This document shows, in pieces, positions 36,307-37,538 of a DNA stretch of 64,000 nt (position 1 is the first letter of the stretch; the number at the start of each line of letters is the position of its first letter). The stretch lies in the IMG/VR virus record IMGVR_UViG_2667527770_000005, positions 1 to 64,000 of that record. The stretch is one strand, 5' to 3'. Source of the DNA: a virus (taxonomy: Duplodnaviria > Heunggongvirae > Uroviricota > Caudoviricetes). The notes below the pieces were generated by a model that saw only the letters and a program-made list of their open reading frames with translations, was not told where the DNA came from and did not search any database. Position numbers and translations under genes: made by a program.

Positions 36307-37538
36307 GCGAGTTGAGTTATCTGGAAAAATTGCTGGATGGGGTTGAAGTTGAGTGGTTGCCATTGGGGGAAATAACCAAATATGAACAGCCAACAAAGTA
36401 TTTGGTAAAAGCAAAAGATTATCACGACACATATACAATACCGGTTCTTACTGCCGGAAAAACATTTATTCTTGGATACACAAATGAGACTCATGGTATT
36501 TATCAGGCATCAAAGGCACCTGTAATAATTTTTGATGATTTCACCACCGCTAATAAATGGGTGGATTTTGACTTTAAGGCAAAATCATCGGCCATGAAAA
36601 TGGTTACATCATGTGATGATAATAAAACCTTACTGAAATATGTTTACTATTGGCTCAATACATTACCAAGTAAATTCGCAGAGGGAGACCATAAACGCCA
36701 ATGGATTAGTAATTATTCTCAAAAAAAAATCCCAATTCCCTGCCCGGATAATCCGGAAAAATCCCTTGCCATCCAGTCCGAAATTGTTCGGATTCTGGAT
36801 AAGTTTACTGCACTTACCGCTGAGCTTACCGCTGAGCTTACCGCTGAGCTTAACATGCGTAAAAAACAGTACAACTACTATCGCGACCAGTTGTTGAGTT
36901 TTGATGAGGAGCAGGAAAAACCTATTTATCTGGAAAAATTGCTGGATGGGGTTGAGGTTGAGTGGTTGCCATTGGGGGAAGTCTCAGCCTTAAGAAGAGG
37001 CAGAGTTATGTCAAAGGGATATTTAACTGAAAATTTTGGCCCATATCCTGTCTATAGCTCTCAAACTGCAAATAATGGGAAAATAGGTTCTATCAATACC
37101 TTCGATTTTGATGGCGAATATATAAGCTGGACAACAGATGGCGCAAATGCAGGCACTGTGTTCTATCGAACAGGTAAATTTTCAATAACTAATGTTTGCG
37201 GCCTGATTACATTAAAAAATAAATACCCATTAATCTACAAATTTCTGTTTTACTGGCTAACAATAGAAGCCAAAAAACATGTTTACTCAGGAATGGGAAA
37301 CCCCAAGTTAATGAGTCATCAGGTTGAAAATATACCTGTACCAGTCCCCTGCCCGGATAATCCGGAAAAATCCCTTGCCATCCAGTCTGAAATCGTTCGG
37401 ATTCTGGATAAATTCGACACCCTGACCAACTCCATCACCGAAGGTCTCCCGCGTGAAATCGAGTTGCGCCAGAAACAATACGAGTACTACCGTGATTTAC
37501 TGTTCAGTTTCCCGAAACCTGAAGCTGTCAGTAATTAA
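36303..37538 (+). CDS. hsdS: type I R-M specificity subunit HsdS (type IC)
   Basis: 411-aa ORF with duplicated conserved segments ([17 protein letters not shown] twice; [23 protein letters not shown] twice) and central TAEL x3 repeat. Confidence 0.92.
36813..36848 (+). repeat. 3 x 12-bp tandem repeat CTTACCGCTGAG (TAEL x3) in hsdS central conserved region
   Basis: read directly; the same repeat type differs in copy number between EcoR124I and EcoR124II. Confidence 0.9.

Follow-up and report, generated by a model that had tools for sequence, protein, structure and literature searches.

A three-unit TAEL array in hsdS as the probable spacer-length determinant of a type IC restriction–modification system on a P1-like phage-plasmid

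The TAEL spacer mechanism of type IC restriction–modification (R-M) systems has been known since 1989 and is textbook knowledge. EcoR124I, with two TAEL repeats in its specificity subunit, recognizes GAA N6 RTCG, and EcoR124II, with three, recognizes GAA N7 RTCG (Loenen et al. 2014, PMC3874165). The extra helical turn moves the DNA-reading domains 0.34 nm away from each other and turns them through 36 degrees, and unequal crossing-over at the 12-bp repeat is taken as the source of the change between the two enzymes (PMC3874165). When the repeat number is altered in hybrids of EcoR124 and EcoDXXI, the spacer follows the prediction exactly; in homodimeric half-subunits the methylation interval is retained (7 nt with two repeats, GAA N7 TTC; 8 nt with three, TCA N8 TGA); and three seems to be the optimal number of repeats (all PMC3874165). 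Removal of one TAEL from EcoR124II alters the range of T5-like phages that are restricted (PMC10644984), and in NgoAV of Neisseria gonorrhoeae the presence of one or two LEAT repeats gives GAC N6 TGC or GAC N7 TGC methylation (PMC6789123). A first-pass annotation of the DNA studied here had invoked the EcoR124 pair, stating that two versus three copies shift the spacer by one base and that copy number changes by unequal crossing-over; the former agrees with PMC3874165 and PMC10644984, and the latter, as an attribution, with PMC3874165.

The window, by which we mean the whole 64,000-nt stretch of DNA that was analysed, carries a repeat of this kind on its plus strand. Positions 36813–36852 hold 3.3 perfect copies of CTTACCGCTGAG (Tandem Repeats Finder: period 12, 100% matches, score 80), encoding (L)TAEL x3. 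The three full units span 36813–36848, exactly where the first-pass annotation had reported three perfect copies, and a trailing CTTA carries the array to 36852; the raw sequence concurs. The array is in frame with hsdS (36813 − 36303 is divisible by 3), its unit codons CTT ACC GCT GAG reading L T A E, and TAEL x3 falls at HsdS residues 172–183, within the central conserved helix D1. Both the frame and an alignment to EcoR124 HsdS (7bst_A) thus bear out the earlier placement of the repeat in the central conserved region of the gene. A regular-expression scan (period 6–30, at least three copies) returned it as the sole perfect tandem array in the 64-kb window. Tandem Repeats Finder additionally marks two imperfect short arrays, at 63922–63973 and 8599–8634, one being AGATCCAAAGA x4.5 with 69% matches and the other a set of GATC-containing repeats of 10–11 nt; these could be iteron- or origin-like plasmid elements.

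The array lies in the middle gene of an hsdM–hsdS–hsdR set, all on the plus strand. The hsdM gene (34744–36306), taken from the open reading frame list and its translation, encodes the type IC methyltransferase subunit of 520 residues and matches the EcoR124 M protein over its full length in a Protein Data Bank search (7bst_D, 1161 bits across 1–520). It shares a 4-nt overlap (ATGA) with hsdS (36303–37538), whose 411-residue product, the repeat-bearing specificity subunit, matches the EcoR124 specificity subunit 7bst_A with E = 5e-154 (phmmer) and is annotated as restriction endonuclease subunit S in plasmid pPSS-10_1. The hsdR gene (37660–40776), also from the open reading frame list, starts 121 nt past hsdS and encodes the type IC motor/nuclease subunit of 1,038 residues, again with a full-length match to the EcoR124 protein in the Protein Data Bank (2w00_A, 2274 bits across 1–1038). 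HsdS residues 1–200 equal those of 7bst_A except for the substitutions M4L and E124K and a single indel, the third TAEL, which adds four residues; residues 357–411, the C-terminal helix, are near-identical. At 36808 and 36840 the window is an exact match to the primers published for removing one TAEL unit from EcoR124II (PMC10644984).

Because all three subunits match their EcoR124 counterparts and the EcoR124II primers match the window, we assign the system to the type IC (EcoR124-family) Type I R-M systems, and the array to the EcoR124II-type central repeat. The locus has the familiar properties of this family: full-length homology of HsdM and HsdR to the prototype; the order hsdM–hsdS–hsdR, with hsdM and hsdS coupled and hsdR separate; and an HsdS with two TRDs, a repeat-bearing central helix and a conserved C-terminal helix, a layout shared by 134 relatives. 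Type IC is also delimited by subunit complementation and antibody cross-reaction, which are experimental criteria.

Along HsdS, an N-terminal conserved segment of 17 residues (36321–36371) precedes TRD1 (36372–36737), which is near-identical to the N-terminal TRD of EcoR124I (two substitutions against 7bst_A over residues 1–170), in the literature a GAA reader. A conserved segment of 23 residues (36738–36806) then runs into the central conserved helix D1 (36807–36902, 32 residues), which aligns to the central helix of EcoR124 HsdS with the four-residue insertion. A linker, DEEQEKPIY (36903–36929), joins D1 to a second copy of the 17-residue N-terminal segment (36930–36980), followed by TRD2 (36981–37346), a second copy of the 23-residue segment (37347–37415) and the C-terminal conserved helix D2 (37416–37511, 32 residues), which by alignment to 7bst_A would be the partner of D1 in an antiparallel coiled coil. 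At three units D1 and D2 are therefore equal, at 32 residues each. The duplicated segments are direct repeats at the DNA level. One of 55 nt (36317–36371 and 36926–36980, 98% identical) encodes the 17-residue segment, and one of 74 nt (36732–36805 and 37341–37414, 93% identical) encodes the 23-residue segment; the copies of each lie 609 nt apart. Both TRDs are consequently bracketed by the same N-terminal-type conserved sequences, a minority architecture that we found in 6 of 97 type IC hsdS genes examined, including those of the contigs L048 and L051 described below.

TRD2 is what separates this gene from EcoR124II. HsdS residues 205–356 give no alignment to 7bst_A and instead cluster with the N-terminal TRDs of other alleles (the domain is N-terminal in L035, L053, L065, L127 and L131). 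It is not the RTCG-reading C-terminal TRD, and since TRD2 differs from that of EcoR124, we rejected an identity of the gene as EcoR124II. The loci that have TRD2 as their N-terminal domain are without a prrC gene, and we therefore rejected their identity as the EcoprrI locus. A protein search for the half-site of TRD2 returned 1,508 relatives with no informative names, the best matches being fragments or half-genes.

Relatives of TRD2 occur in many genera, and some are half-size S proteins of about 200 residues with four-residue repeats of their own (TSEL x2 in Gallibacterium). Among the matches we examined proteins P0012, P0039 and P0044; several others are simply gene fragments. The half-size forms suggest single-TRD, homodimerizing S subunits. 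In the hsdS genes of two IMG/VR contigs of about 100 kb (L048:3641–4988 and L051:3641–5000) the two TRDs are near-copies of each other, so that a palindromic target is predicted for them.

The two TRDs of the window also exist in the opposite order. In the hsdS gene of E. coli LR-25 (L131:6001–7236; chromosome NZ_AP027500.1, 483202–484437) the TRD2-type domain comes first and the GAA reader second; the junction and the length of 1,236 nt equal those of the window gene, and there are three TAEL units. As M2S has pseudo-twofold symmetry and the helices are equal at n=3 (n being the number of TAEL units), the window and LR-25 proteins should recognize the same duplex site. The four characterized type IC N-terminal TRDs read GAA, TCA, CCA and GCA (PMC3874165). 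With TRD1 as a GAA reader and TRD2 of N-terminal type, the predicted target of the window enzyme at n=3 is GAA N8 and then the half-site of TRD2 in reverse complement. If TRD2 recognizes three bases of which the last is the methylated A, this target would be GAA N8 TNN, and would become GAA N7 TNN after loss of one unit. The N-type flank and the nine-residue DEEQEKPIY linker may possibly shift the geometry, and hence the absolute spacer. The gene is a new TRD combination in a well-understood scaffold.

The same hsdS gene, 100% identical, is present in plasmid pPSS-10_1 of E. coli PSS-10, and the window and this plasmid share 99.5% identity across 18.3 kb (63 mismatches, 7 gaps). The hsd neighbours in pPSS-10_1 are P1-type: a C1 repressor, terminase, late-promoter activator, phd/doc, an S24 peptidase and a DNA polymerase III theta homologue. 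In the plasmid these genes stand upstream of hsd, and the corresponding stretch of the window is at about 27100–46200. From this resemblance we take the window to be a P1-like phage-plasmid element, related to pPSS-10_1 yet a different record. Type IC hsdS-like sequence is widespread, being present in 1,315 of 5,426 complete E. coli genomes (about one quarter), on chromosomes and plasmids alike, and in 900 plasmid records across Enterobacteriaceae.

To count units in a way that is independent of the repeat, loci were fetched via the C-terminal 220 residues of HsdM (80 viral loci and 80 from different species of many bacterial groups), and the census drew on viral contigs, metagenomes and a genome collection holding a single genome for each species, 134 complete type IC hsdS genes in all. 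Of these genes, 82 have a D1 of 2-unit length and 50 one of 3-unit length, with one gene of a single unit (L174, Acidithiobacillus sp.) and one of none (L173, a Chlorobiaceae MAG, reading FTELTARKKQY), the last two both from the genome contigs. Four or more units were found in none of the 134, and the length of D2 is invariant in all of them. Pattern scans for the exact unit agree on the two common states: with flanks, viral contigs gave 19 loci of n=2, 7 of n=3 and none of n=4, and metagenome contigs gave 12 of n=2, 11 of n=3 and none of n=1, 4 or 5. BLAST with synthetic n=4 and n=1 queries yielded top-match spans of 104 and 116 nt, corresponding to n=2 and n=3, the coverage and identity of 100% being inflated by the joining of overlapping pieces.

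The units themselves carry a record of turnover. In 123 unique hsdS genes the unit takes 33 different DNA forms, mostly synonymous, some encoding TTEL, EAEL or IAEL. All units are identical within the gene in 102 of the 123, against a maximum of 33 in 2000 shuffles, and the mean difference per 12 nt is 0.16 within genes versus 1.81 between genes. TAEL units in type IC hsdS are under concerted evolution, and their homogeneity within genes points to repeated loss and re-duplication, since a static array would let the units diverge. Natural one-unit differences are found as well. In three independent pairs of contigs from different sources (L048/L051, L120/L110 and L117/L116) the hsdS genes are base-for-base identical except for one CTTACCGCTGAG unit, L048 having n=2 and L051 n=3. 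The flanks of these pairs are about 99.5–99.7% identical over 4.5–7.6 kb (18, 29 and 2 mismatches over 6.7, 7.6 and 4.5 kb, respectively); a fourth pair, L045/L037, is more diverged. Unit number varies in 4 of the 14 TRD combinations having at least two members and is uniform in the other 10. We infer, roughly, that a unit is gained or lost on the timescale of the first substitutions in a few kilobases, much faster than a specific point mutation.

We consider it highly probable that the array sets the spacer length of a type IC R-M system on a P1-like phage-plasmid, with the loss of one unit shifting the target. In HsdS an antiparallel two-helix coiled coil, D1/D2, would carry TRD1 and TRD2 at its ends, and each 12-bp unit would lengthen D1 alone by four residues (TAEL, about one helical turn). 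In the three-unit state, where D1 matches D2, the methylated adenines would lie 8 nt apart, as in EcoR124II, EcoDXXI and EcoprrI. One of the identical units could be lost through slipped-strand mispairing or unequal crossing-over between them, and the resulting 2-unit state would have a 7-nt separation and a new target set for methylation and restriction. For this allele the one-base-pair effect per unit is taken from the literature, and we infer its target sequence and its toggling. The array has the form of a spacer toggle, with perfect tandem 12-bp units encoding TAEL within D1; a copy-number difference between otherwise identical genes is seen in the three relative pairs, and the three carriers of this allele all have n=3.

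An origin of the array in sequencing or assembly error, or in a chance repeat unrelated to hsdS function, is scarcely credible, and we rejected both. The odds of two exact 12-nt repetitions at one position are about 4^-24, which excludes chance, and the array is in frame inside a gene near-identical to a solved protein (7bst_A). At 40 nt it is below the length of any read; besides its detection by Tandem Repeats Finder, it is present in identical form in an independent finished plasmid, pPSS-10_1, and recurs in dozens of independent contigs. A more serious alternative is a static structural repeat, in which the TAEL turns are the normal full-length D1, kept by protein geometry and serving no functional switch. 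The equal 32-residue length of D1 and D2 at n=3 fits it, as does the apparent optimum of three repeats in the review (PMC3874165), and so does the uniformity of the closest alleles. Across 5,426 complete E. coli genomes, 72,556 plasmids and phages we found no 2- or 4-unit version of the exact allele, only n=3. In the E. coli genome and plasmid collections the gene has just two full-length matches, pPSS-10_1 (identical) and the LR-25 chromosome; together with the window they are the carriers of this TRD pair, LR-25 in domain-swapped form, and every one has three units. Natural EcoR124II (GAA + RTCG, n=3) was not found in the E. coli genomes, and the six EcoR124I-type records there all have n=2, so alleles look stable in the sampled population. 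We nevertheless judge a static repeat improbable. Its units should drift independently at synonymous sites, whereas they are homogenized within genes yet differ between genes; three otherwise identical gene pairs stand one unit apart; and the 2-unit state is the commoner (82 versus 50), which argues that three is not a fixed optimum.

At the other extreme, the array might serve a classical phase-variable Type I system (a phasevarion), switching at 1e-3 to 1e-5 per generation and producing epigenetically distinct subpopulations. The array is indeed perfect and in frame, a changed n would give a different methylation specificity, and the literature has considered repeats next to the TAEL region as possible phase-variable tracts (PMC7383803). 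What defines a phasevarion is a long hypermutable simple-sequence tract that, by changing length, alters expression or specificity at high frequency; here the 12-nt unit is present in just three copies, with a natural range of essentially 2–3; two states are common in nature and no array exceeds three units; n is uniform in 10 of 14 TRD combinations; and the gene sits beside hsdR on a phage-plasmid, which fits defence rather than host gene regulation. We regard this alternative as very unlikely. Our preferred reading of the array as a spacer-length determinant is thus that of a slow two-state toggle, with rare gain or loss of one unit, and not of classical phase variation. The first-pass annotation had called the system likely switchable. 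That expectation is supported indirectly, by natural one-unit pairs built on the same unit and by concerted evolution; this allele itself is seen at n=3 only. The particular gene may toggle, given the identity of its array and scaffold with those of genes that demonstrably do so. Next to classical contingency loci, however, three copies of a 12-mer offer a poor substrate, and in a single host lineage switching may be so infrequent that it has no consequence; the symmetrical three-unit state, in which D1 equals D2, may simply be the preferred stable form.

A wider reading, which we hold only tentatively and think somewhat doubtful, is that the toggle is conserved and selected throughout the type IC family as a contingency device, and is joined here by repeat-mediated shuffling of TRDs. 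It would explain the identity of units within genes across genera, the two common states and the gene pairs one unit apart. The 55-nt and 74-nt direct repeats, 609 nt apart, could allow TRDs to be moved, duplicated or deleted by homologous recombination, and the reversed TRD order in LR-25 is consistent with such shuffling. If this reading is true, the window hsdS would be a multi-state specificity generator on a phage-plasmid. Repeat number sets which sites are methylated and cut, and hence which phages and plasmids a host accepts, and methylomes and transfer barriers become easier to predict from sequence alone once n is known to toggle between 2 and 3. The practical gain at this locus is small, the scaffold and mechanism being known. 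What is new here is the two-state length distribution with an invariant partner helix, the concerted evolution of the units, three natural one-unit polymorphisms and a natural permutation of TRD order. These additions would not surprise a specialist; device and family are both well known. For a mechanism that was originally found in laboratory-derived variants, the census and the concerted evolution add support at the population level.

Among named systems, EcoR124II (EcoR124/3, from plasmid R124; GAA N7 RTCG) is like the window in its three TAEL repeats, gene order, TRD1, C-terminal helix and full-length HsdM and HsdR, and in having the same DNA at least at the published primer sites, 36808 and 36840. 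It differs in its TRD2, which in the window is a different domain with N-terminal-type flanks and the DEEQEKPIY linker, so that the second half-site and possibly the absolute spacer differ; the carrier of the window system is moreover a P1-like phage-plasmid and not R124. EcoR124I (two TAEL; GAA N6 RTCG) shares TRD1 and the helices, and its D1 is what the window would have after loss of one unit; the lower unit number and the TRD2 set it apart.

The engineered two-N-domain enzymes (PMC3874165, PMC2877798, PMC3320862) are resembled by the window in its N-terminal-type TRD in second position. EcoR124I-NT, a two-N-domain enzyme, and circularly permuted EcoAI (PMC3874165) resemble the arrangement seen in the window and LR-25. 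In the engineered enzymes, too, three repeats accompany an 8-nt methylation interval, the interval predicted for the window. Unlike them, the window has two dissimilar N-type TRDs, joined naturally in a single polypeptide.

NgoAV, a type IC system of Neisseria gonorrhoeae, offers a parallel in natural strain variation of a four-residue repeat, its one-base spacer change being known from methylomes. It differs in its LEAT repeats, in their range of 0–3, in a poly-G frameshift that truncates HsdS and in being chromosomal in Neisseria. In Helicobacter pylori hsdS, Furuta et al. reportedly described in 2011 a domain movement (DoMo) by which a TRD can occupy either position, flanked by repeated sequence. 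The TRD2 of the window and the swapped LR-25 gene are alike in this respect, in another family and another organism.
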